Of a DNA stretch of 64,000 nt, positions 32,946-61,992 are shown piece after piece. A program made the translations under genes and the position numbers. Location: positions 109,271 through 173,270 of the forward strand of contig CAYNBT010000001.1 of assembly GCA_964396025.1 (NCBI GenBank), given 5' to 3'. The notes beneath the pieces are model-generated. The model did not search any database. It saw only the letters and a list, made by a program, of their open reading frames with translations, and had not been told where the DNA came from. The number at the start of each line of letters is the position of its first letter. Position 1 is the first letter of the stretch. This stretch comes from an uncultured Candidatus Saccharibacteria bacterium (GTDB taxonomy: Bacteria > Patescibacteriota > WWE3 > UBA101185 > UBA10185).

Positions 32946-33509
32946 TTGATTATGTATAATTTATGCATGCTAACAATTAATGACATTGCCGAGAGAGGCA
33001 CAAGCTGGATTCACAAAGATTTAGAATTGCGACAAAGTCCCATACACGGTTATGGACTATTCGCATCAAAAGAAATACCTGTAAACACATTGGTAGCGGT
33101 GTTTGGTGGAAAGGTTTACACAGCAGAGGAAATCTCTAACCTACCAGACGATTCTTTTGTTAAAGACGTAGCAACGCAACTAAACAATGATTTTTTCTTA
33201 GGTCCACTTAATGAGAACGATGTTGAACGAGGCTTCTTTATCAATCATAGATGTGAACCAAACGCTAGAATAAAAAACTCCATATTTCTTGTCACTATAA
33301 AGAGTTTAGTACCTGATGAAGAACTAACATTCGACTATGCACATTCCCATAACAAACAGATAAATATGCAATGCAGTTGTGGGGCAAAGAGTTGTAGAAA
33401 AATAATAAGAAATGATGATTATCTTAATCCAGAATACGCAAGTAAAAACATGGAGTATTTTGTAGAATGGCTAAGAGAACTAGTAGTGAAGCAACAGCCT
33501 TTACTGTAA
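32946..33509 (+). CDS. SET-domain protein (putative protein-lysine methyltransferase)
   Basis: GYGLFASKEI…FGGKVYT… (SET N-region), FINHRCEPNA (the NHxCxPN SAM-binding motif), ELTFDY, and a post-SET Cys cluster CSCGAKSCRK. The true start is probably the internal ATG at 32967. Confidence 0.7.
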   Translation: MIMYNLCMLTINDIAERGTSWIHKDLELRQSPIHGYGLFASKEIPVNTLVAVFGGKVYTAEEISNLPDDSFVKDVATQLNNDFFLGPLNENDVERGFFINHRCEPNARIKNSIFLVTIKSLVPDEELTFDYAHSHNKQINMQCSCGAKSCRKIIRNDDYLNPEYASKNMEYFVEWLRELVVKQQPLL

Positions 33510-33515
33510 AAAAAT

Positions 33516-33557
33516 AGACTGCACCTCATGTTTTTCATGTAGTTGCAGTCTTTTTCT
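33516..33557. terminator. Rho-independent terminator hairpin (AGACTGCA…TGCAGTCT + TTTTTCTT), bidirectional
   Basis: 8-bp stem at 33516-33523/33544-33551, T-run after it on the plus strand and an A-run before it (a U-run on the minus strand). Lies between convergent genes. Confidence 0.5.
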
Positions 33558-33586
33558 TGGCGCTTGTACAAAACAAGACACACCTC

Positions 33587-34042
33587 CTAGTCTAAGTAGG
33601 CAAATGCCCTGTTAGCAAGGAATGGAACCGACGCCAACGCAAGAAGTAGCAAAAGCAAATACCCATAAAAACCTAACGGCAGGGGTGTCCGATTCTCAAC
33701 AAAGGCCCGTATGAAAAATACGACAAAGATCTGCCCTACTTCAAAAACGGAGCCAATAGAAGCCCACATACCTATTGTCGCACTACCTCCTAGTAGTCCA
33801 AAAAATGAAACGCTAAGCAAATAAAACCCAATCCAGTAAAAGAGTCCGGACAAAAATGCATTCAACATTATTGCCCCATAGTTTAGTTTAGCGATATCTC
33901 CATGATCGACTAAACGAAGTACATGATTCTCTCCACTGCCCCAGCGATAACCCGAGAATGCCACCGAGGCAAATCCGCAAAGGGCTATCGCAATCAGCAT
34001 CCAACGCGACATTACAGCAAGCTCACCTAATGCAACTTTCAT
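33587..34042 (-). CDS. 4-TM membrane protein, hypothetical
   Basis: Start set at MKVALGEL… with AAGGAGG 7 nt upstream. Local GC is visibly higher than in neighbouring genes. Confidence 0.4.
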   Translation of the reverse strand: MKVALGELAVMSRWMLIAIALCGFASVAFSGYRWGSGENHVLRLVDHGDIAKLNYGAIMLNAFLSGLFYWIGFYLLSVSFFGLLGGSATIGMWASIGSVFEVGQIFVVFFIRAFVENRTPLPLGFYGYLLLLLLALASVPFLANRAFAYLD

Positions 34043-34138
34043 CACTAACCTCCTTGAGTTATGTTTTCCAAATGTTAACATACATACCCACTGTATTCAA
34101 ACTATAGGGCCTTGACACAGTTATGCTACAATATTTGC

Positions 34139-34558
34139 ATGCAGAACAAAGAGCGTAGTTTCTTTACAAAATTCGGACCACATCTAATCTTTGACGGTTA
34201 TGGAGCAAACCCTAATCTTCTAAACAACATGGAGCTGTGTTTTGACGCGCTAAACATGCTTGCAAAACTTGCTGGAATGCGAAAAATGATGGAACCAATA
34301 GTTATTAAATCTGAAGGAAATCTCACTCTGGGCGGAAAGGATCCTGGGGGTTTCTCTGGATTTGTAATAATTCAGGAATCACATATAAGCCTTCATACGT
34401 TTGTGAAAAGAAAATTTATTACCGTAGACCTATATTCCTGCAAGGAATTTGATCCCGAAAGCGCAATCAACTATCTAAAGGAAGCTTTCGAAGTAAAAGA
34501 AGCGGATATTGTTAAACTGGACAGAGGCCTTAAATATCCAACTGAGAACCTCATTTAG
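34139..34558 (+). CDS. speH: S-adenosylmethionine decarboxylase proenzyme, small pyruvoyl-dependent (SpeH/class 1b) type
   Basis: …FSGFVIIQESHISLHTFVKRKFITVDLYSCKEF… matches the AdoMetDC self-cleavage region (E-S-H…H-T-[WF]-P/V…D-[VL]-[FY]-[ST]-C). Start at MQNKERS. Confidence 0.7.
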   Translation: MQNKERSFFTKFGPHLIFDGYGANPNLLNNMELCFDALNMLAKLAGMRKMMEPIVIKSEGNLTLGGKDPGGFSGFVIIQESHISLHTFVKRKFITVDLYSCKEFDPESAINYLKEAFEVKEADIVKLDRGLKYPTENLI

Positions 34559-34617
34559 CCAAACAAAAACAATCTCTTTTTCAATCTAACAGATGCAGAT
34601 CTGCGAAAATTCCAACA

Positions 34618-35637
34618 TCAGCTAAAAAGCTTGCTTAAAGAATGTTTTTTTCGCGTTTTCCAGTCGCCTTTGTGATAAGCATAACTTGATAGTAACGGCA
34701 GAACAGATGTTGCTTCAGCAAATACCATTTGCTCAAACGAATTTGACACTTTACCCCAAGACATTGCTTCCTTAAGTGTAGAGCTAGAACAGGCACCATC
34801 ACGAGAATCTGCAACAGTAATTTGTATTGCATATTTATGCATTGGAACCTCTTTACCTAGCAATTCCGCACAAACTACGGTATCCTGCACAAAATTCTTA
34901 GGTACACCGCCACCAATCATTAGTAAGCCAGTTTCCTCAACAGACATTTTGATATGTGTAAGTTCTCTAAAATCCTTAACAGAATCAATGGAAACATGAG
35001 ACAAGGGGCGAGCATACTGATGCTTAACTAAACCAAATCCAGCACTACTATCGGAAAAAGCAGGACAAAAAATCGGGACATCGTGTTCATAAGCTAACTG
35101 TACGAGTGAATTCTTTTTCTTTGAATTTCTTGTCAAATACTCACCCATTGCAACAATAAATTCGCGGGAGGAGTAAGGCTTTGGGGACAAACTGTCGGCA
35201 ATTTCTTGTATAGCATTGTCACAAGCCTGTAGATTGTCTTCATCGATAAAAGTATCGTATATTCTGTCTATGTAAAGCTCTCTTAGCTGCTGATCATCAA
35301 TATACGGTGTACCTATATAATGCTTAAATCCTAAAGCCTCAAAAAAATCCATATCAACGATACTTGCACCAGTAGCCACAACAGCATCCACCATGTTATG
35401 CGCTATAAGGTCAGAGTAGATATTCATACAACCTGCGGCACTAGTGCTACCGGCCAGAGACAATATAACTACACAAGAAGGATCTTTGAGCATATCAGCA
35501 TAGATTTGAGCGGCGCGACCAAGATCTCGCGCAGTGAAGCCCATATCTTGCATACCTTCAATAATTTTGGTTGAATCAAATGACTTGAAATCTATGTGTT
35601 TGACTTCTCTTGAGAGGAGTTCGTGTTTTTTGAGCAT
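34618..35637 (-). CDS. Deoxyhypusine synthase-like protein (DHS/homospermidine-synthase family)
   Basis: About 340 aa; …ILSLAGSTSAAGCMNIYSDLIAHNMVDAVVATGASIVDMDFFEALG… resembles the DHS NAD-binding core. Start at MLKKHELL. Confidence 0.55.
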   Translation of the reverse strand: MLKKHELLSREVKHIDFKSFDSTKIIEGMQDMGFTARDLGRAAQIYADMLKDPSCVVILSLAGSTSAAGCMNIYSDLIAHNMVDAVVATGASIVDMDFFEALGFKHYIGTPYIDDQQLRELYIDRIYDTFIDEDNLQACDNAIQEIADSLSPKPYSSREFIVAMGEYLTRNSKKKNSLVQLAYEHDVPIFCPAFSDSSAGFGLVKHQYARPLSHVSIDSVKDFRELTHIKMSVEETGLLMIGGGVPKNFVQDTVVCAELLGKEVPMHKYAIQITVADSRDGACSSSTLKEAMSWGKVSNSFEQMVFAEATSVLPLLSSYAYHKGDWKTRKKHSLSKLFS

Positions 35638-35716
35638 ATTACAGTGTTCTACACTAACAGACAGACAAATGCAACTATATTGACATAACATAATTTAAGT
35701 TAGAAGATTATGTTGA

Positions 35717-38038: not shown

Positions 38039-38085
38039 ATATCTATCACTACCAGAAACAATAGAGCTATTTTGGCCGGAACAAA

Positions 38086-38113
38086 GGAGGGCCCCGCGTA
38101 AGCGGGGCCCTCC
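38086..38113. terminator. GC-rich perfect hairpin GGAGGGCCCCGC-gtaa-GCGGGGCCCTCC; likely bidirectional intrinsic terminator
   Basis: 12-bp perfect stem, 4-nt loop, between convergent HK (+) and hup (-); U-rich tract TTTGTT follows on the minus strand. Confidence 0.6.
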
Positions 38114-38144
38114 TATTCCATAGAAGAAACAGTATTAACTACTA

Positions 38145-38418
38145 TTACTTCACTTCATCCTTCAAGCTTTTACCTGCCTTGAATGCTGGAGTTTTTCCTG
38201 CTGGGATGTGTAATGGAGCACCGGTTTGTGGGTTTCTTCCCATTCTTGCGGCTCTGGATCTAACTTCGAAAGTTCCGAAGCCAGTCCAAGTAACTTTCTC
38301 GCCTCTTGCGAGCGCGGAAGTAATTACTTCTACCAAAGCGTCTAGAGCTTTTCCAGAATCTACTTTAGTAAGACCAGCTTTATCAGCTACCATACTTATT
38401 AAGTCTGTTTTTGTCATT
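38145..38418 (-). CDS. hup: HU-family nucleoid-associated DNA-binding protein
   Basis: [18 protein letters not shown]…[42 protein letters not shown]. Start trimmed to MTKTD (AGGGGGG about 10 nt upstream). Confidence 0.85.
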
Positions 38419-38485
38419 GCTAAGCACCCCCCTTCATTACATTGCCTTATGGCAAATAAATATTTCAAAAAAATTAACTGATTTC

Positions 38486-47534: not shown

Positions 47535-48566
47535 CTAATGAAATTCGAACGATCTAAGCACCCAATTTAGAAGTGTCTTCGTATCGCCAAATCTATCCTG
47601 GCTGCTCATAACCACAATAGCCAAATCTACAGAATCCTGATTGTAGGCATAGATAAGCACCTCTCCGGCACCTTCTGTTTTGCCGGTTTTTATTCCTATA
47701 GATCCAGGAACTTCCCAAAGCAAACTGTTAGTGTTTGATACAGCTCTAGGACCAACACTAGTCTCAAAGGTGTAAGTCTTTTTTGCAACAGCATCCTTGA
47801 TCAGGTCAGCTTCAACCGCTCTTTTACTTAATTTATAGAGATCAAACGAGGTAGAGTAATGTAAGAAATTGGCATCATCTAGACCTATGGCATTAGTAAA
47901 ATGTGTATTTGAAAGTCCAAATGCCAGTGCTTTTGCATTCATCAAGGACACAAAATCAGTACCGCTGTTTGCCGCCAATGTACAAGCCGCATCCCCAGCC
48001 GAACCAATTAACATTGCATAGAGTAAATCCTGAACAGAAATCTCTTCTCCATTCAAAAAACCTACCTTTTGACTGTCCACAAGCGTACAAAATTCCGGAA
48101 CTTTTAGCAGATCATCTATCTTATATACATCAAGAGCAACAAGAGCTGTCATGAGCTTTGTAGTAGAAGCAGGGGCTAGCTTTAGCAGATAATCTTTGTT
48201 AAACAAAACTGTGTCCGTTTTTCTATCAAGCACCAAAGCAGAAAGGGCAGAAATTTGAGGTGTCGCAAAGGCACTACCTTTAAATTCTGGCGCGGCAACC
48301 GAAGATGCTCCCAATACACCATTACCCGAAACAATGCGCTGTGGCGGGGTAGCATCAAAAAAATACGCCAAAGAATTGATCTTCACCTCTCTAGGAATCC
48401 CTACACCATAACCCAAAGCTATTATCAAAACAGTTACTGAAACTGTTCTAAAAGCTAGATTTGCTGAATAGATAGGCGCCGAGCCCAAGAATTCAATGGC
48501 ACGCAAAGCATCAACACAACGGAATAGAACAAATAATTGGATTTTTTGCCATATACTTAACGTCAT
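47535..48566 (-). CDS. D-alanyl-D-alanine carboxypeptidase (peptidase S11, PBP5-like)
   Basis: SxxK APASTTKLMTALVAL, SGN-like region, KTG in IKTGKTEGAG. Confidence 0.75.
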   Translation of the reverse strand: MTLSIWQKIQLFVLFRCVDALRAIEFLGSAPIYSANLAFRTVSVTVLIIALGYGVGIPREVKINSLAYFFDATPPQRIVSGNGVLGASSVAAPEFKGSAFATPQISALSALVLDRKTDTVLFNKDYLLKLAPASTTKLMTALVALDVYKIDDLLKVPEFCTLVDSQKVGFLNGEEISVQDLLYAMLIGSAGDAACTLAANSGTDFVSLMNAKALAFGLSNTHFTNAIGLDDANFLHYSTSFDLYKLSKRAVEADLIKDAVAKKTYTFETSVGPRAVSNTNSLLWEVPGSIGIKTGKTEGAGEVLIYAYNQDSVDLAIVVMSSQDRFGDTKTLLNWVLRSFEFH

Positions 48567-49024
48567 TGTATGTAGTCCCCTTGGATAGGCTGAACTAACC
48601 CTACCAAATCCTTTGCCTGCATTACCACCGATATCGTATGAGATCCAGCATTAAAGGCGACCATATCCTTTTGATATATCCTAAGATCAAAATAAGTCTT
48701 GATGCCCATAAGATTTCCAAAAGGAGGAATGCTACCTACTTCTAAACCTGTGAGTTCTTTAATTTCTTGTTTAGTCGCCATTCTCAAATCCTTTATACCT
48801 GCTGAGTCTTTTACTTTCTTAAAACTTAAACGAGTATCCCCTGGAATTGCTACGAGTATTGGTGACTTATCAGCCATTAATATCAGCGCTTTAACTCCCA
48901 TGGATAAACTAGAATCACGCACTTGAGCGGCTTCCTCGCTTGTATATACAGGTGTATGCTCAATTTTTTGATATTGCACTTTGTGATGATCTAAAGTACT
49001 TAGTATACGTTCCAATACATTCAT
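48563..49024 (-). CDS. YbaK/ProX-type aminoacyl-tRNA deacylase
   Basis: 153 aa; …MGVKALILMADKSPILVAIPGDTRLSFKKV…GSIPPFGN… is the YbaK editing-domain pattern. Confidence 0.65.
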   Translation of the reverse strand: MNVLERILSTLDHHKVQYQKIEHTPVYTSEEAAQVRDSSLSMGVKALILMADKSPILVAIPGDTRLSFKKVKDSAGIKDLRMATKQEIKELTGLEVGSIPPFGNLMGIKTYFDLRIYQKDMVAFNAGSHTISVVMQAKDLVGLVQPIQGDYIQ

Positions 49025-49033
49025 AGAGTTACA

Positions 49034-50713
49034 TTAACAAATCCTCATATCCTTAACAATTATGTTTAATTTCTCGCGACCATTGAATACATTTTTAGAT
49101 AGTGTGTAAGCAATGTCTACTCTACTTCCCATGCTCAGGTTTGCTGCAAGGTCCTTACCATCAAAGTAGATTGCCTTTTGAGTAATTCCGTTATCATACA
49201 AACTTAAGGATAAGTGATTGTTTTCTTTACCAACAAGGTCAAAGCCTGCAACACCTACCTGCAAACAAGCAAAAAGCGGCTCGGGATTCCCTACACCATA
49301 CGGGCGTAAACTATCTACTTCAGAAAAAAAGTCGAGACTAAGTACATCTAGCGGAATACTACAATCAATCTCTAAAGAAGGCACAAACACTTCAGCCGGA
49401 TATGTTGTTGATATCAGAGTGTTAAGCGAGTTTTTTAATTGTTCAATATTTTCGGTTTTAATGGAAAATCCAGCCGCCATAGGATGCCCACCCAAACTCT
49501 CAAAAAGATGCTCAAACTTTCTAAGCGCCTCTATGATATTAATCCCACTGATAGACCTTACCGAACCCTTGCCGTGACCATCAGTTATACTTATCACAAC
49601 AGAGGGTCTGTAATACTTCTGAACCAATTTAGACGCCACCAAACCAATTATCCCTTCGTGGAAATCTTTATGGGAAGTCACAATAACACTAGGCAGATCA
49701 GCATCCTCATTGTTGTAAGCCAAATCATACATTTCCAAAGTTTTGTTTTGACGGTCTAGGTTTATGGAATTCAGCTTGTGAGCTAGCTCCAATGCCTTAG
49801 ACTCATTACTCTCTAGTAAAAGTTCTACAGCAGCAGAGGCATCTAAAAGCCTGCCAGTAGCATTCAAACGAGGCCCAACCACCCAGCCTAGCTGATATGT
49901 AGAAAGATCTCCTAACTTTGTGCCGGAAACTTCAAACAATTTACGTAATCCAAGTAGGGGATTTGTGTTTAGAATTTCCAAACCGTCTCGCACTAAGACC
50001 CTATTTATGCCAGTCAAAGGTTGCAAGTCTGTGATTGTAGCGATGCATGCTAATGACAACAGTTGGGGATCTTTGGAGCCCAATACTTTGCTCAAAACCC
50101 AAGAAATTCCGGAACCAACCATTTGATCGCACCAAACAATACAATCAGCCTGTGGGAGTTCTGAGGGCCTCTGGTGATGATCTGTAACAATTACCTGAAA
50201 TCCTTGAGATTTTAGATGTGCAACTTCAGCCACTGCGGTGATGCCAGTATCTACCGTAATCAAAAGTGCGGATTTAGCGTTGAATTTTTCGCCAAGTAGC
50301 TTCTCTACATCTGCAATAGACCCAAGTGATAAACCATACCCATGGTCAAATCGGTTTGGAATAAAATAAGCGCATTTTGTATACCCCAACTCCTTTGTTA
50401 TGGTTGAATACAAAATTGCTGTTGCACAAATGCCATCTGCATCATAATCGCCATAAATCAAAATGGGTGTATCTTGGCTAATTGCATGTTGGATCTGTTT
50501 TTTTGCAAGGGATAATGATTCCAAAAACTCCCGCGGAAGCCTTTTTAAAAGTTCTGATATGGAGGGTGGATTCAAAAACAACTCTTTATCTTCTTGAGTA
50601 TTGATATTTCTATTCTGGAGAAGAATGTCTACAATATTCTTCTCATCCGAATAACTACTGCGTATGTTCCAGTTTTTAGTCATGCCAAGATAAGTTACAT
50701 CTTTACGCCGCAC
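49034..50713 (-). CDS. recJ: Single-stranded-DNA-specific exonuclease RecJ
   Basis: DHH motifs …ILIYGDYDADGICATAIL…, …VDTGITA…, …IVTDHHQ…; DHHA1-like C-terminal region. Confidence 0.85.
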   Translation of the reverse strand: MRRKDVTYLGMTKNWNIRSSYSDEKNIVDILLQNRNINTQEDKELFLNPPSISELLKRLPREFLESLSLAKKQIQHAISQDTPILIYGDYDADGICATAILYSTITKELGYTKCAYFIPNRFDHGYGLSLGSIADVEKLLGEKFNAKSALLITVDTGITAVAEVAHLKSQGFQVIVTDHHQRPSELPQADCIVWCDQMVGSGISWVLSKVLGSKDPQLLSLACIATITDLQPLTGINRVLVRDGLEILNTNPLLGLRKLFEVSGTKLGDLSTYQLGWVVGPRLNATGRLLDASAAVELLLESNESKALELAHKLNSINLDRQNKTLEMYDLAYNNEDADLPSVIVTSHKDFHEGIIGLVASKLVQKYYRPSVVISITDGHGKGSVRSISGINIIEALRKFEHLFESLGGHPMAAGFSIKTENIEQLKNSLNTLISTTYPAEVFVPSLEIDCSIPLDVLSLDFFSEVDSLRPYGVGNPEPLFACLQVGVAGFDLVGKENNHLSLSLYDNGITQKAIYFDGKDLAANLSMGSRVDIAYTLSKNVFNGREKLNIIVKDMRIC

Positions 50714-50744
50714 TTGACAAATGCCCCATAGTTGTGTAATATTG

Positions 50745-51300
50745 AATAATCTTATTCACCTGCTGAGTTTCCCAGAGGAGGCCCCATGGCCGGAACACTA
50801 GCGGGAAAACGGCGCAAAACCTGGCATCCACGGCACGATTTTAGATTGTGCACGGGAGCCTTAGGTATTGCAGCTCTTTGCTTTTATCCTAGGTAAGGGT
50901 AAAGAGCGGCACGCAATACCTAAGGCACCCGGTTTAGCAGCGCTGCAGAGTTTGGGAGTGAGTGTATGTTAAAAACTGCATTCTAGCGGTCTGCCCGCCT
51001 TGAACAAGCCCATCACCTTCGCTTGTTCTCGCGTCACGCAAAACGTGACGACAGGGCCCAAAAACCGCTACCGACATGCGCCAGAACCCGGCGTACGGAC
51101 TCCCAAACTCATCCCTCAGAATGATCAGACTCGTATGCAGTATAAATATACGAGATCTGTATTATTTAGGGCGGAAGTAAGCAAAAAAGGAATGTGCGCA
51201 TGCACCTCCTACCTTTCCTTGCTGCCCGCTTCCGCCCTGTCGTCCTAGGTACTGAAAATCTTAGTCCACCTGACTAAAATCTTTCGGTACCTAGGGCGAT
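50745..51300. ncRNA. GC-rich, ORF-free, densely base-paired region: candidate structured ncRNA of unknown class
   Basis: Local GC is far above the window background. No credible ORF on either strand. Multiple perfect helices: 50859-50871/50913-50925 (13 bp), 50948-50959/51099-51110 (12 bp) enclosing a 3-way junction (50984-90/51064-70, 51002-09/51021-28, 51032-38/51044-50), 51168-77/51229-38 (10 bp), 51244-52/51287-95 (9 bp). Strand not resolved. Confidence 0.4.
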
Positions 51301-51772
51301 AAACATTCTTACAGCCTTAAATTTCCCTAAACAAATTCATTTACATAAATCCTATAGTATGATATGCTCTTTTGTATTCAAGGAGTAAACATTGCCAATC
51401 TTCAAAAAATTGGCCACAATTGAATATGCTAAAAAGGGTTACGCGGTGTTAATACCGGGTCTCCCTAATCACTCCTCCTTGATAGCTTGTGTGACACCCA
51501 AGCGCAAACCTTGCTCAAAGCTGGGGTTTGCCTAGAATCAAGGCTTTCCAAGAAGTAACTGGAAAGCTGCGATTCACCACGGATGTCCACCGGCTAATCG
51601 TTGTGCACTTACGTGCACGTGCCCCTAACCTTGGAGTTTTAGTTATCCGCAAGCGGCTGCAGCCTAAATGTGGAGATACGAATGACAAAGAGGCTTTATA
51701 TAAGTAGGGTGCTAAACGAAGGGGTGAAAGTTAGCAACAAAAAATGCATAACTGCCCCTTAAGAACTTTCTC
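51301..51772 (+). ncRNA. Second hairpin-rich non-coding stretch, possibly a plus-strand ncRNA ending at the 51773-51815 terminator
   Basis: No ORF of 60 aa or more on either strand. Perfect hairpins at 51504-10/51525-31, 51543-50/51560-67 and 51603-08/51613-18. Ends in a strong plus-strand intrinsic terminator, although all flanking genes are on the minus strand. Confidence 0.25.
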
Positions 51773-51815
51773 AGCCTAAAATAGATATTATCTTTTTAGG
51801 CTGTTTTCATTTTTT
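51773..51815 (+). terminator. Intrinsic terminator AGCCTAAAA-N11-TTTTTAGGCT followed by GTTTTCATTTTTTCTTT
   Basis: 9-bp stem plus a long T-tract on the plus strand. The same hairpin lies 10 nt downstream of the secF stop on the minus strand but is not followed by a U-tract there. Confidence 0.55.
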
Positions 51816-52730
51816 CTTTGATTTTTTTGTGGAAATATACTGTTCCCAATAAACCAAAATTGGTGCTGCCGTAAAAATGCTGGAGTACGTTCCAGAGACT
51901 ATACCTATTAAGAGAGCAAATACAAAATCCCTTATACTTTCCCCCCCTAACATATACATAGAAAATAGCGTGATGATAACTGTTAACGAAGTGGCCATGG
52001 ATCTACCCAACGTTTCAGTAATAGAATAATCCACAATCTCCGCAAATTTAAAACTTTTAGGAAGTTTAGAAAGGTTTTCACGAATTCTATCAAAAACAAC
52101 AATAGTATCATGGACCGAGAATCCTATTACAGTAAGCACTGCCGTTATAAATAAGGCGTTGATTTCCGTTCCATAAAAATGTCCCAAAATAGAGAATATG
52201 CCTATAATCATCAGGGCGTCGTGCAACATAGCTATAATGGCAGAGGCACCAAAACGCACACTCGAGTAAGGTTGAGGAATGTTTCTAAAGGAATAAGCTA
52301 TATATGCCACAATAGCAAAAGAAGCAACCAGAACTGCGAGGAAGGCGTTTTTTGTGGTTTCAGTGCCTACTGTTGGTCCCACTGTTTCTACACTAACCTG
52401 CTGAGTTTTTGCAAATGTGGTTTCAATGGCCTTAGAAACTTGATCTGATGCTTTTGATTCCAGCGGATTGGTTTTTAGTGTTAAAGTTCCGTCGTCCAAA
52501 GAAAACTCCTTGATTTGAACACCTTCTTGTTTTCCAAGCGTTTCCCTGAACTTAGTAATTTGGGTATCTGCGGAAGATTCAACGGTATAAACAAATACAG
52601 ACCCGCCAGTAAAATCAATAGATAAGTTTAATCCAAAAATCAAAAGAGAAATTATTCCCGGGATCAATAAAGCCAAGGACAGCGTTATAAAGTATTTTCC
52701 ATATTTAATTATTTGCATCTTGCCCTCCAT
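51807..52730 (-). CDS. secF: Protein translocase subunit SecF
   Basis: 6-TM SecF pattern …SIDFTGGSVFVY…; start trimmed to an internal Met to remove overlap with secD. Confidence 0.85.
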   Translation of the reverse strand: MEGKMQIIKYGKYFITLSLALLIPGIISLLIFGLNLSIDFTGGSVFVYTVESSADTQITKFRETLGKQEGVQIKEFSLDDGTLTLKTNPLESKASDQVSKAIETTFAKTQQVSVETVGPTVGTETTKNAFLAVLVASFAIVAYIAYSFRNIPQPYSSVRFGASAIIAMLHDALMIIGIFSILGHFYGTEINALFITAVLTVIGFSVHDTIVVFDRIRENLSKLPKSFKFAEIVDYSITETLGRSMATSLTVIITLFSMYMLGGESIRDFVFALLIGIVSGTYSSIFTAAPILVYWEQYISTKKSKKK

Positions 52731-54108
52731 CCTTATACCTTGGCACAACATTGAATGCCTGAATTAATGTTCTGGTAGCAAAAATCGAAGTAAAAAGCGA
52801 CAACATAATGCCTATGGACAAAGTAAGAGCAAATCCACGGATGATTCCATTTCCAAAGTGAAAAAGTATAAAGGCAGTAATCAATGAGGATACGTTTGAA
52901 TCCTTAATCGAGTGCCAAGCACGATCAAACCCAAACTTAATCGCCATGGTAGCGGGAACACCCCAGCGAATCTCCTCTTTAATCCTTTCAAAAATAAGTA
53001 TATTTGCATCTACGGCCATGCCCACAGACAAGATAAAACCAGCAATACCAGGTAGAGTTAAAACTACAGGCACGATTTTGAAAATTGTGATTGTAAGAGC
53101 TGTATACAAGATTAGGGCAACATTCGCAATCAGGCCCAATCTTCCGTAAAAAACTAACATAAAGAGCATAACAAAGAACATTCCAACTAGACCTGCAAAC
53201 ATGCTTTTTTCTACAGAATCCTGCCCTAGTGTTGCACCAACAGTTTTCTGTTCTAGAATCTTGACGGGTATAGGCAGAGCACCAGCCCGAATTTGTAAGC
53301 TGAGCGCGTTGGCGGACTTCACATCAAAATTCCCAGTGATAACAGGGTCCTGAAACACGCCGTCAGCCAAATCAGCACTTACCACAGGCATTGAAAGAGG
53401 CGAAGCCTCCTGATCCAAAAATAAAGCAACTGGTTTACCAACATTCTTTTTTGCTAAGTTTGCAAATTTTTTCTTACCCTCTGGGGTGAACAAAAGCTGT
53501 ATTTGAGGAGCCGAGGATCCCCCAGAACTTAAATCGCTAGAAAAAACCACTGTAGCACCACGGAGATCGGCACCTGATAAATCTGTTGATTTCCAAGCCG
53601 TAGGATTCATATAAAACTCGTAGAATTTATCTTCCGACCATTCAGAAGCATTAGTGAGCTCTTTGAATTCTAGTTGAGCAGTTTGCCCAATTAACGATAC
53701 TGCAGCCTGTGTGTCTGTAATCCCGGGAATTTCCACAATGATCCTGTATTCATCGCCTACTTTAGCCGTGTTTATAACAGGTTCCGTCACCCCAAGATAA
53801 TTCACACGACGCTCTATCACCTCTTTAGCCGACTCCAAAGCAGACTGTTGATCATCAACAGCTATTTTTGACATATCGGTGCCCAAAACAACTCTTATGC
53901 CACCTTCAAGATCTAGACCCTTTTTCAACTCCCTTAGATCTATGTTAAAACTTCCACCAAAAAACGAAGCGAAGTAACCGCCAATGGAAGTATCTATATT
54001 GAGACCGAATTTGTTGAATTTAATTGTTAGAACAGGAAGTGCTGCCAAAATGGAAATGCAGAATATTGTTGTGAGAAGGCCTAGCCTAAAATAGATGTTT
54101 TTGAACAT
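52705..54108 (-). CDS. secD: Protein translocase subunit SecD
   Basis: N-terminal TM, large periplasmic domain, C-terminal 5-TM bundle with …LPGIAGFILSVGMAVDANILIFERIKEE…. Confidence 0.85.
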   Translation of the reverse strand: MFKNIYFRLGLLTTIFCISILAALPVLTIKFNKFGLNIDTSIGGYFASFFGGSFNIDLRELKKGLDLEGGIRVVLGTDMSKIAVDDQQSALESAKEVIERRVNYLGVTEPVINTAKVGDEYRIIVEIPGITDTQAAVSLIGQTAQLEFKELTNASEWSEDKFYEFYMNPTAWKSTDLSGADLRGATVVFSSDLSSGGSSAPQIQLLFTPEGKKKFANLAKKNVGKPVALFLDQEASPLSMPVVSADLADGVFQDPVITGNFDVKSANALSLQIRAGALPIPVKILEQKTVGATLGQDSVEKSMFAGLVGMFFVMLFMLVFYGRLGLIANVALILYTALTITIFKIVPVVLTLPGIAGFILSVGMAVDANILIFERIKEEIRWGVPATMAIKFGFDRAWHSIKDSNVSSLITAFILFHFGNGIIRGFALTLSIGIMLSLFTSIFATRTLIQAFNVVPRYKDGGQDANN

Positions 54109-61622: not shown

Positions 61623-61688
61623 ATTGACAATTTACATTATTATAATTTATATTGGAATAATAATATTTCTATTATAAATGGAGATAAC

Positions 61689-61976
61689 TTGGACAAAACC
61701 TTACCTAATCATATCAAACAAATAAGAGAACGTAACAAGCTCTCACAAGAACGTTTTGGGAAAAAGATAGGTATTTCGGGGAAAGCTGTCTCTGCGTATG
61801 AAACTGGCAGAGCTACACCTTCTCTTAAAGTACTAGAAAACATATCTAACACCTACAAAACTTCTTTCACATCTCTTACTAAAAGCGATAAGGAAAAATT
61901 ATCGGAAAAAATATCTAAACTAGAAGAAACTTTGTCAGAACTTAAAATAATTTTCTTTGAGTATGGCAATACTTAG
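61689..61976 (+). CDS. XRE-family HTH transcriptional regulator (Cro/C1-type)
   Basis: …IKQIRERNKLSQERFGKKIGISGKAVSAYETGRATPS… is the canonical HTH_3 pattern. Divergent from radC across an AT-rich 66-bp spacer. Confidence 0.7.
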   Translation: MDKTLPNHIKQIRERNKLSQERFGKKIGISGKAVSAYETGRATPSLKVLENISNTYKTSFTSLTKSDKEKLSEKISKLEETLSELKIIFFEYGNT

Positions 61977-61992
61977 CAGAAACGACTAAATA

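Follow-up and report, generated by a model that had tools for sequence, protein, structure and literature searches.

Between recJ and secF in a bacterium of the WWE3 lineage (Patescibacteria) lies a spacer of 1,123 bp without genes, at 50684-51806 of the window, by which is meant the whole stretch of 64,000 nucleotides of DNA that was analysed and to which all unprefixed coordinates refer. The spacer is by far the largest in the window, the next measuring about 447 bp. Both flanking genes, recJ (49034-50683) and secF (51807-52751), were identified by Pfam and lie on the minus strand, as an earlier prediction made from the letters of this DNA (hereafter the original prediction) had stated, and nearly all genes of the window run head to tail on that strand. 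The best named relatives of this RecJ are WWE3 proteins, the nearest full-length relative being only 55% identical. In the WWE3 genomes L081, L082, L169, L172, L173 and L174, secF and recJ lie 4-41 bp apart or overlap. The original prediction had flagged positions 51301-51815, at the secF side of the spacer, for an intrinsic terminator on the plus strand and a non-coding RNA gene upstream of it. The comparative analysis described here resolves the spacer into a conserved structured RNA of about 550 nt (Unit 1, 50750-51300, plus strand) and a 469-bp lineage-specific insertion (Unit 2, 51345-51813) that makes up most of the flagged region. It somewhat favours the view that the spacer as a whole is a non-coding transcription unit on the plus strand that arose in two steps, with the flagged terminator as its 3' end.

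Homologous loci were found by exact-protein look-ups in a strain of the window species (L164), which departs from the window by 0.2-0.9% in its coding flanks, and in another species (L167 and L168), whose secD, secF and recJ are 81-83% identical to those of the window. The window species also occurs in the samples behind the Logan runs SRR16481182 and SRR16481186. Unit 1 has homologues at the same locus in all three, and the 46-50% (about 48%) identity between window and L167 at four-fold sites of secD, secF and recJ served as the neutral benchmark. Unit 1 stands out by composition, with 49-55% G+C over 50745-51300 against about 35-42% around it, and by folding: in a sliding scan of 9 kb (47-56 kb), strong structure appeared only at 50781-51320, with local z down to -8.4 and the plus strand folding better in most of the significant windows. 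Weaker islands were seen at 51501-51620 (local z -5.4) and at the terminator, and 51261-51500 was unremarkable.

A promoter search upstream of 50745, which the original prediction had proposed as a check, returned a sigma-70-like promoter on the plus strand at 50714-50742 that agrees with the consensus at 10 of 12 positions (TTGACA at 50714-50719, a 17-nt spacer and TAATAT at 50737-50742) and implies a predicted start at about 50749-50751. In L167 and L168, the -35 box is identical, the spacer again measures 17 nt and the -10 box reads TATAGT, giving the shared form TTGACA-N17-TANNNT; the promoter stretch is 82% identical between window and L167 as compared with about 48% at neutral sites. Downstream of the predicted start, the fold model divides Unit 1 into six domains on the plus strand, namely A (50759-50805), B (50810-50945), C (50948-51110), D (51119-51167), E (51168-51238) and F (51240-51299), with about 72% of the bases paired. 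The minimum free energy (MFE) of the plus strand is -249.8 kcal/mol, corresponding to z = -10.7 (z = -8.2 on the minus strand). When the window and L164 alleles, the two most different, were folded separately, the same architecture emerged, with energies of -249.8 (window) and -245.1 kcal/mol (L164). Identity to L167 is 79-85% for domains B, D, E and F, as against 46-50% at four-fold sites, and only 54% for domain A.

The pattern of substitution indicates what has been conserved. In domain C, 54 modelled pairs are 98.1% paired over all cells of the alignment and 8 of them have changed on both sides, a number reached by none of 500 shuffles (0/500) and compared with 0-1 in slid controls. In the other domains, aligned plainly by MAFFT, 126 pairs are 99.4% paired, 5 have changed on both sides, and all 19 one-sided changes are compatible with G-U wobble pairing, so that 13 of the 180 modelled pairs of Unit 1 carry changes on both sides. 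Among the 27 variable pairs, 24 remain paired in every sequence when read on the plus strand as opposed to 6 on the minus strand, and the alifold energies of the two strands' alignments are -187.7 (plus) and -154.7 (minus). The wobble changes, the strand asymmetry of the pairs and the alifold energies therefore point to the plus-strand RNA as the structure under selection. Compensatory and wobble-compatible changes joined with above-neutral conservation, the generic marks of a structured non-coding RNA, were found for Unit 1, the part of the spacer that has diverged homologues, and these comparisons make it very probable that Unit 1 is a selected plus-strand structured RNA. The GC-rich upstream element of the original prediction corresponds to this conserved structured RNA, in which the substitutions suit only the plus strand.

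Unit 1 is not a coding region: all six frames are full of stops, and an open reading frame (ORF) of 82 codons is broken in L164. Domain A contains an invariant AGGAGG (50776-50781, plus strand) followed by an AUG (50786-50788) that opens a 36-codon ORF (50786-50896), and both elements are retained in L167 despite the 54% identity of the domain. Since the ORF has undergone 11 nonsynonymous and 3 synonymous codon changes together with a 3-nt indel, the sequence of the encoded peptide is not constrained. Beyond domain F, the tail of Unit 1 (51301-51344, plus strand) is poorly conserved, being 68% identical to L167 with a 7-nt indel, and its final bases are what remains of the ancestral end of secF: TTA (51341-51343) from the former stop codon and C (51344) from the last position of a lysine codon.

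Within the scaffold of Unit 1, some parts are fixed and others differ sharply even between strains. Domain C is closed by an invariant helix of 12 bp (50948-50959 with 51099-51110, plus strand) that encloses a variable module, inside which sits an invariant hairpin (51002-51028, plus strand) with the loop CCAUCACCUUC. Hairpin E (51168-51238, plus strand) likewise has a conserved outer stem and an inner stem that differs between lineages, and contains the invariant single-stranded GCACCUCCUAC (51202-51212, plus strand), which resembles the anti-Shine-Dalgarno of 16S rRNA and includes CACCTCC at 51203. Between window and L164, domain C is 65% identical and hairpin E 77%, as compared with 99.5% in the flanks. 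The domain C of L164 is 94% identical to that of L167, above any other domain between those lineages, and the hairpin-E allele of L164 matches neither window nor L167, its inner stem having been rebuilt from different sequence. The most fitting reading of this variation is that co-occurring lineages exchange modules by recombination, for which the invariant helices and loops would supply the homology. Other origins were considered and set aside. An inversion of domain C between its inverted-repeat arms would have turned around the internal hairpin and loop, which keep their orientation. Mutagenesis by a diversity-generating retroelement (DGR) does not fit substitutions of all types accompanied by indels and compensatory pairs. 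An assembly chimera behind the L164 allele is unlikely, as its domain C is unlike either of the other alleles and the shared flanks do not reach the length of a 31-mer.

The sequence-invariant parts of Unit 1 are thus the CU-rich single-stranded loops CAUCACCUUC and GCACCUCCUAC and the AGGAGG-AUG, and the surrounding stems are free to vary or are exchanged between lineages. The loop of the invariant hairpin (CCAUCACCUUC) and the single-stranded GCACCUCCUAC are each similar to the 3' end of 16S rRNA, and this similarity, taken with the invariant AGGAGG, is the only lead to a function. The best guess at present, though a rather doubtful one, is that Unit 1 acts in trans as a regulatory or scaffold RNA that would pair with or mimic ribosome-binding sequences through its exposed loops (CAUCACCUUC, CACCUCCUAC).

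Unit 1 was also compared with RNAs already known. A search of the whole window with cmscan and the 4,227 families of Rfam 15, the check for a known family that the original prediction had called for, gave zero matches at the gathering score, and at E <= 10 the region 50500-52000 and the L164 allele gave only chance matches to miRNA, snoRNA and lncRNA families with E of 0.04 or higher. OLE, GOLLD, ROOL, HEARO, raiA, 6S and the other families of Rfam 15 came nowhere near the thresholds of their covariance models, and ARAGORN found no tRNA or tmRNA, permuted tmRNA included, in the window. Group I introns are frequent in Patescibacteria (PMC13011429); here, RF00028 gave no match at E <= 10, and the element is intergenic and splits no tRNA, rRNA or coding sequence. 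The original prediction had remarked on a string resembling the CR-II core of RNase P RNA, and that string (GGGGTGAAAG) is indeed present at 51721-51730; as a statement of identity the resemblance did not survive, with no RNase P match even at E <= 10 and the CR-II-like and CR-V-like strings standing in the wrong order. That the spacer harbours a divergent member of a known family (RNase P, tmRNA, 6S, group I intron, OLE, GOLLD, ROOL or HEARO) could appeal to the CR-II-like GGGGUGAAAG and to a CR-V-like CAGAACCCGGCGUA at 51085-51098 noticed by eye, yet the latter is conserved in neither L164 nor L167 and lies in a hairpin loop, the former sits in the dispensable insertion, and with Rfam and ARAGORN negative the idea is scarcely credible.

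Searches for further homologues of the spacer were equally negative. No similarity was found among the matches listed for 163 recJ loci from genomes and metagenomes (few of them WWE3) or in phage and plasmid collections; five patterns run against viral contigs retrieved no homologue, the single 17-mer match (L166) being a chance hit in a GC-rich coding region, and the covariance model R1 matched none of 111 other loci. Unit 1 is, from these searches, an undescribed RNA seen so far in two species only. Two further identities for the spacer were dismissed. In relatives, a tRNA synthetase gene of the aspS/asnS type stands between recJ and a gene for an aminoacyl-tRNA editing domain, and it is absent from the window (48563-50683); a pseudogene of it is ruled out as the source of the spacer, in which tblastn detected no remnant and in which stops occur throughout all six frames. 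DnaA-box-like strings were seen by eye, yet neither strand bias nor skew changes here as at a replication origin.

The second component of the spacer, Unit 2 (51345-51813, plus strand), is present in L164 and absent from L167 and L168, which do carry Unit 1. The BLAST alignment with L167 and L168 jumps from window position 51344 to 51814, and the two halves of the ancestral junction, contiguous in L167 as ATTTAC|TTCTTTGA (the TTA being the complement of the secF stop codon TAA), flank the 469 bp in the window with no bases lost. The added DNA split the last lysine codon of secF (AA|G) and supplied A AAA TGA, turning the ancestral ...AAG TAA into ...AA|A AAA TGA and remodelling the 3' end of the gene, so that SecF ends in STKKSKKK in the window as compared with ...KKSKK in L167, i.e. 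with one lysine added. On this junction evidence, Unit 2 is almost certainly an insertion. Its junctions, read directly, show no marks of an insertion sequence or miniature inverted-repeat transposable element (MITE), with no terminal inverted repeats and no clean target duplication; each side has one TTCATTT, but the two are not in register. No second copy of Unit 2 was found in the window or in 174 loci, and a repeat or mobile element was set aside on that ground within the window.

The contents of Unit 2 include a -10-like TATGCT (51363-51368), an AAGGAG (51380-51385) and, at the far end, the terminator, all on the plus strand. The three hairpins reported in the original prediction were recovered, at 51394-51414 (9 bp with one mismatch), at 51543-51567 (perfect) and at 51604-51619 (perfect, with GTGCAC arms at 51604-51609 and 51614-51619). 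The 515-nt flagged stretch as a whole folds better than its shuffles, with z = -5.3 on the plus and -3.9 on the minus strand. Window and L164 differ within Unit 2 by 3 substitutions, a 1-nt deletion and a 39-nt deletion; the last removes a strain-variable segment (51539-51577, plus strand) that holds the perfect hairpin GCTTTCCA...TGGAAAGC and is absent from the otherwise 99.5%-identical L164, and without it the fold z of Unit 2 falls from -5.3 to -3.3. One of the substitutions, C-to-T at 51396, keeps a wobble pair on the plus strand, and another, G51526A, breaks a predicted C-G pair. The strain comparison gives no evidence of structural constraint on Unit 2 and is too shallow for more. The region of the AAGGAG (51378-51385) could pair perfectly over 8 bp with CUCCUUGA at 51475-51482, about 90 nt downstream, which is part of AAUCACUCCUCCUUGA, another string resembling the 3' end of 16S rRNA.

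As the original prediction had noted, no ORF of 60 aa or more exists in 51301-51806, the longest being 59 aa on the plus and 57 aa on the minus strand. Three short ORFs of 47, 59 and 30 codons (ORF47, 51392-51535; ORF59, 51528-51707; ORF30, 51670-51762; plus strand) follow one another with short overlaps after an AAGGAG-N6-TTG (TTG at 51392), ending 10 nt before the terminator hairpin. They match nothing in Pfam, PHROGs or NCBIfam, gave two repetitive false positives only against 1.8 billion representative proteins and, when fused, had no match in a collection of 5.8 billion proteins. None of them is an annotated protein in the collection consulted, and no gene was called at this place on L164. 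A coding signal that was apparent against off-frame windows disappeared against a null of spurious ORFs: on codon score they rank near the 76th-80th percentile among spurious ORFs of matching size and near the 5th percentile among real genes.

The feature for which the locus was originally flagged, an intrinsic-terminator-like site at 51772-51815 on the plus strand, consists of a stem (51772-51803), the tract UUUUCAUUUU (51804-51813) and, beyond it, U-rich codons of secF. The arms CAGCCTAAAA (51772-51781) and TTTTAGGCTG (51794-51803) form 10 perfect base pairs, and the stem reaches 14 bp with a one-base bulge if the inner AGAT/ATCT is counted; it has 4 G-C pairs at its base, an A/U-rich lower half, an apical loop of 3 nt and a free energy (dG) of -13.8 kcal/mol. 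On the plus strand, the stem is followed by TTTTCATTTTTTCTTTGATTTTTTT (TTTTCATTTTTT...), in which 7 of the first 9 bases are U, and the tract UUUUCAUUUU is interrupted; on the minus strand, what comes after this hairpin is AGAAAGTTCTTAAGG (AGAAAGTTC), which is no U-tract. The site is therefore terminator-like on the plus strand only, as claimed originally, and it is there that a stable G+C-containing stem and a U-rich tract on the transcribed strand, the defining parts of an intrinsic terminator, occur together. It is unchanged between window and L164. The T-run from 51814 onwards consists of secF lysine codons, whereas 51804-51813 was not part of the ancestral secF and arrived with the insertion. 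As the insert includes the hairpin and the U-tract over its initial ten bases, the terminator came ready-made and independent of those lysine codons.

In a custom scan of the whole window for hairpins followed by U-tracts, 5 sites appeared on the plus strand, the one at 51772 being the strongest and one of 2 that are intergenic; scans found no other terminator-like site on the plus strand between 50750 and 51772. A bidirectional terminator at 33517-33550, a hairpin with T-runs on both strands in the gap where the genes 32946-33509 (plus) and 33587-34081 (minus) converge, shows that canonical terminators are used in this genome. The hairpin at 51772 probably terminates plus-strand transcripts in vivo, to judge from its form and position, and it was perhaps favoured since it would limit antisense transcription into secF.

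These elements can be joined into a history of the locus. The common ancestor of the window species and the L167/L168 species would have acquired the roughly 550-nt Unit 1 between secF and recJ, which until then would have been abutting, as they are in all other WWE3 genomes examined. Unit 1 would be read rightwards from its conserved promoter, its six helical domains being kept by selection on the plus-strand RNA. In the lineage of the window, a fragment of 469 bp would then have inserted exactly at the stop codon of secF, bringing the hairpin and U-tract at its far end. In the present-day locus, RNA polymerase would start near 50750, make the structured RNA, and either read through the insertion or re-initiate at a weak hybrid promoter (51340-51368), to be released at 51804-51813, three bases before the secF stop codon, averting antisense transcription of secF. 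The flagged 470 nt would, on this account, be a recent and dispensable 3' extension instead of a conserved RNA gene.

Several observations count against this history. The transcription start, the read-through and the stop are inferred from sequence motifs, and the intact short ORFs with their good AAGGAG-N6-TTG leave room for a coding role of Unit 2. A terminator-like site as strong as that at 51772 is expected by chance about 0.6 times per 64-kb strand, as estimated from 12 dinucleotide shuffles; the rarity of the motif alone is therefore not exceptional, and the site is credible by position, not by rarity. A general terminator scan of 50000-52500 found no excess of terminator-like sites and did not list the one at 51772. 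In L167, which lacks the insertion, no canonical terminator follows hairpin F, so that the terminator is a lineage-specific addition which the RNA evidently does not need. The covariation comes from four sequences, representing three lineages of two species, and for domain C all four were aligned by the covariance model R1, built from the window alone, so that this alignment is fitted to the model. The minus strand of the spacer also folds far better than its shuffles, and a minus-strand read-through RNA across the spacer likely exists too, because secF and recJ are probably co-transcribed in relatives. Finally, the enrichment of the anti-SD-like CACCT (4 observed, 0.61 expected, P = 0.002) is not significant after correction for the post hoc choice of this 5-mer.

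Other explanations of the flagged region differ chiefly in what they make of Unit 2. It could be a small RNA (sRNA) gene of its own, independent of Unit 1 and running from the promoter-like site at 51340-51368 to the terminator. The distance fits a gene of about 440 nt, the site (TTTACA-N17-TATGCT, with TG) matches 9 of 12 consensus positions, and the plus-strand bias of the fold, the island at 51501-51620 and the wobble-preserving change at 51396 agree with it. The -35 box is, however, a hybrid created by the insertion junction, reads CTTACA in L164 and is weaker there; the best-folding hairpin is missing from L164, the change at 51526 disrupts pairing, and the segment has no homologues in which covariation could show and is absent from the sister species, hence dispensable. 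An independent sRNA gene is for these reasons unlikely. The part of the original prediction that posited a plus-strand transcript finds good support, mainly in the substitutions and the promoter of Unit 1 upstream, and the part that placed a separate non-coding RNA gene within 51301-51815 does not. A still less likely interpretation is that Unit 2 derives from horizontal transfer of a protein-coding cassette with one to three short ORFs, being either the small cassette itself or a decaying piece of it. In its favour are the ribosome-binding sequence and TTG ahead of three overlapping frames that stop just before the hairpin, and the G+C content at third codon positions (GC3), which at 0.45-0.52 as against 0.34 for the genome suggests a foreign origin. 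All three frames stay open in both strains, the 39-nt deletion of L164 being in frame, its 1-nt deletion falling outside the ORFs and 2 of the 3 substitutions being synonymous in ORF47, yet with only 3 substitutions and 2 indels this comparison is too shallow for significance, and against the cassette stand the codon scores typical of spurious ORFs and the want of homologues, annotation or gene calls described above.

It is improbable, too, that Unit 2 is inert inserted DNA in which the hairpin and T-run arose by chance or were inherited and have no present function. The chance rate of the motif, the absence of the segment from the sister species, the indels between strains and the failure of every homology search agree with inertness, but the spacer is the largest in 64 kb of a compact genome, the hairpin and U-tract stand right where transcription would converge with secF and do not differ between strains, and transcription of Unit 1 must end somewhere while nothing else downstream looks like a terminator. 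Even less probable is the proposal that the plus strand is silent and the spacer is transcribed only on the minus strand, within a secDF-recJ operon, its structure serving recJ as an extended leader or as a site of processing, and the hairpin amounting to a weak element on the secF side. Abutting or overlapping secF and recJ in relatives suggest co-transcription, no convincing minus-strand promoter was found adjoining recJ, and the minus strand folds well in both units (z -8.2 and -3.9). Against it, the one-sided changes in Unit 1 that are wobble-compatible on the plus strand would be A-C mismatches on the minus strand (24 as opposed to 6 of 27 pairs kept), MFE and alifold energies favour the plus strand by 22-33 kcal/mol, the near-consensus, conserved promoter faces rightwards, and the U-tract exists on the plus strand only. 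A single rightward unit, built up in the two steps described, is the most economical model and is retained here as the somewhat favoured account.

Some neighbouring and related loci deserve mention in their own right. In L170, a third WWE3 lineage, a secF-recJ spacer of 294 bp (L170:5907-6200) unrelated to that of the window has, in antisense orientation to the genes, a TTGACA-N17-TATAGT and a GC-rich hairpin with a T-run behind it; the secF-recJ junction may thus have acquired antisense-oriented elements more than once. In L082 (L082:7672-8400, identical in L083), about 700 nt of extra, fairly GC-rich non-coding DNA lies right after recJ, with z of -3.5 on the plus and -4.1 on the minus strand; it was considered as a relocated homologue of Unit 1 and rejected, as neither its sequence nor the model gave a match. 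In L081 (7657-7956) and L082 (8400-8639), the aspS/asnS-like gene has a leader with a T-box-like GGGUGGUACCG box and then a hairpin and U-run, conserved in both genomes, on which Rfam is silent at the gathering score and at E <= 5, and T-box leaders in Patescibacteria may escape standard annotation. Within the window, the next-largest gene-free spacers, at 38039-38485 (447 bp) and at 61623-61992 (370 bp, directly downstream of the rplM-rpsI pair and between it and radC), have no Rfam match at the gathering score. The window also holds, clustered at 32946-35691, genes for a SET-domain protein (32946-33509), an S-adenosylmethionine decarboxylase (34112-34558) and a deoxyhypusine synthase homologue (34618-35691), a combination unusual in a reduced bacterial genome.

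Comparison with established systems places both parts of the locus. Like known Rho-independent terminators, the site at 51772 combines a stable hairpin, a 3-nt apical loop and a U-rich tract directly after the stem, and like the one at 33517-33550 it lies where two directions of transcription meet. It departs from this class in acting, as predicted from sequence, in one direction only, in the A/U-rich lower half of its stem, in its interrupted U-tract, in lying on an inserted fragment and in a distal T-run that is secF coding sequence. For Unit 1, the closest parallels in kind are OLE, GOLLD, ROOL and raiA, large 'ornate' bacterial non-coding RNAs whose function is unknown or has begun to emerge recently. 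Structures of such RNAs have been described (PMC12286853). Unit 1 resembles them in measuring several hundred nucleotides, in its multiple domains, its own predicted promoter, its lack of coding capacity and its covariation-supported helices; it differs in matching none of their models, in being confined so far to two species, in the unusual length and near-perfection of its helices and in the exchange of two internal modules between lineages.

A functional parallel is offered by RNAIII. This RNA of Staphylococcus aureus, about 514 nt long, carries a small ORF and has C-rich hairpin loops that pair with the Shine-Dalgarno (SD) regions of its targets. Unit 1 is similar in size and multi-hairpin layout and in a short ORF with a strong SD near the 5' end, and its invariant CU-rich unpaired motifs (CAUCACCUUC, CACCUCCU) could pair with ribosome-binding sites of the GGAGG type. 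Set against these likenesses are the lack of homology, the statistically insecure enrichment of the motif and the unconserved peptide, and by this analogy an RNAIII-like mode of action would be a rather long shot. The variable regions, or expansion segments, of rRNA, RNase P RNA and tmRNA provide another comparison. Domain C and hairpin E are similarly a fast-diverging module, with helices kept by compensatory change, inside an invariant closing helix. The divergence in Unit 1 differs in that it separates strains with 99.5%-identical flanks, and one allele shares 94% identity with its counterpart in another species; this points to exchange by recombination and not to slow drift.

It is tempting to draw these strands together and to suppose that Unit 1 founds a new class of large modular RNAs of Patescibacteria, with an invariant scaffold, fixed anti-SD-like loops, exchangeable modules kept diverse by selection and a later-inserted terminator cassette that would shield secF from read-through of the RNA. 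This combined proposal is doubtful as a whole; if it were true, the modules, i.e. domain C and the inner part of hairpin E shuffled by recombination, would constitute a determinant of specificity or compatibility at the level of RNA. The locus would be of local interest only if the RNA were confined to two species and of minor effect. It offers two testable cases, one of an RNA gene whose inner modules are about 35% different between otherwise 99.5%-identical strains, implying exchange of modules between lineages, and the other of a recent insertion onto a stop codon that changed how secF ends and brought a finished terminator with it. Pipelines that annotate RNAs through Rfam leave loci of this kind blank in these phyla. 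To our knowledge, almost no lineage-specific RNAs have been described in Patescibacteria, whose genomes are tiny and tightly packed. Retention of a 1.1-kb spacer in such a genome, together with the compensatory changes that maintain the helices of its RNA of about 550 nt, suggests that this RNA has a function worth its cost to the organism.

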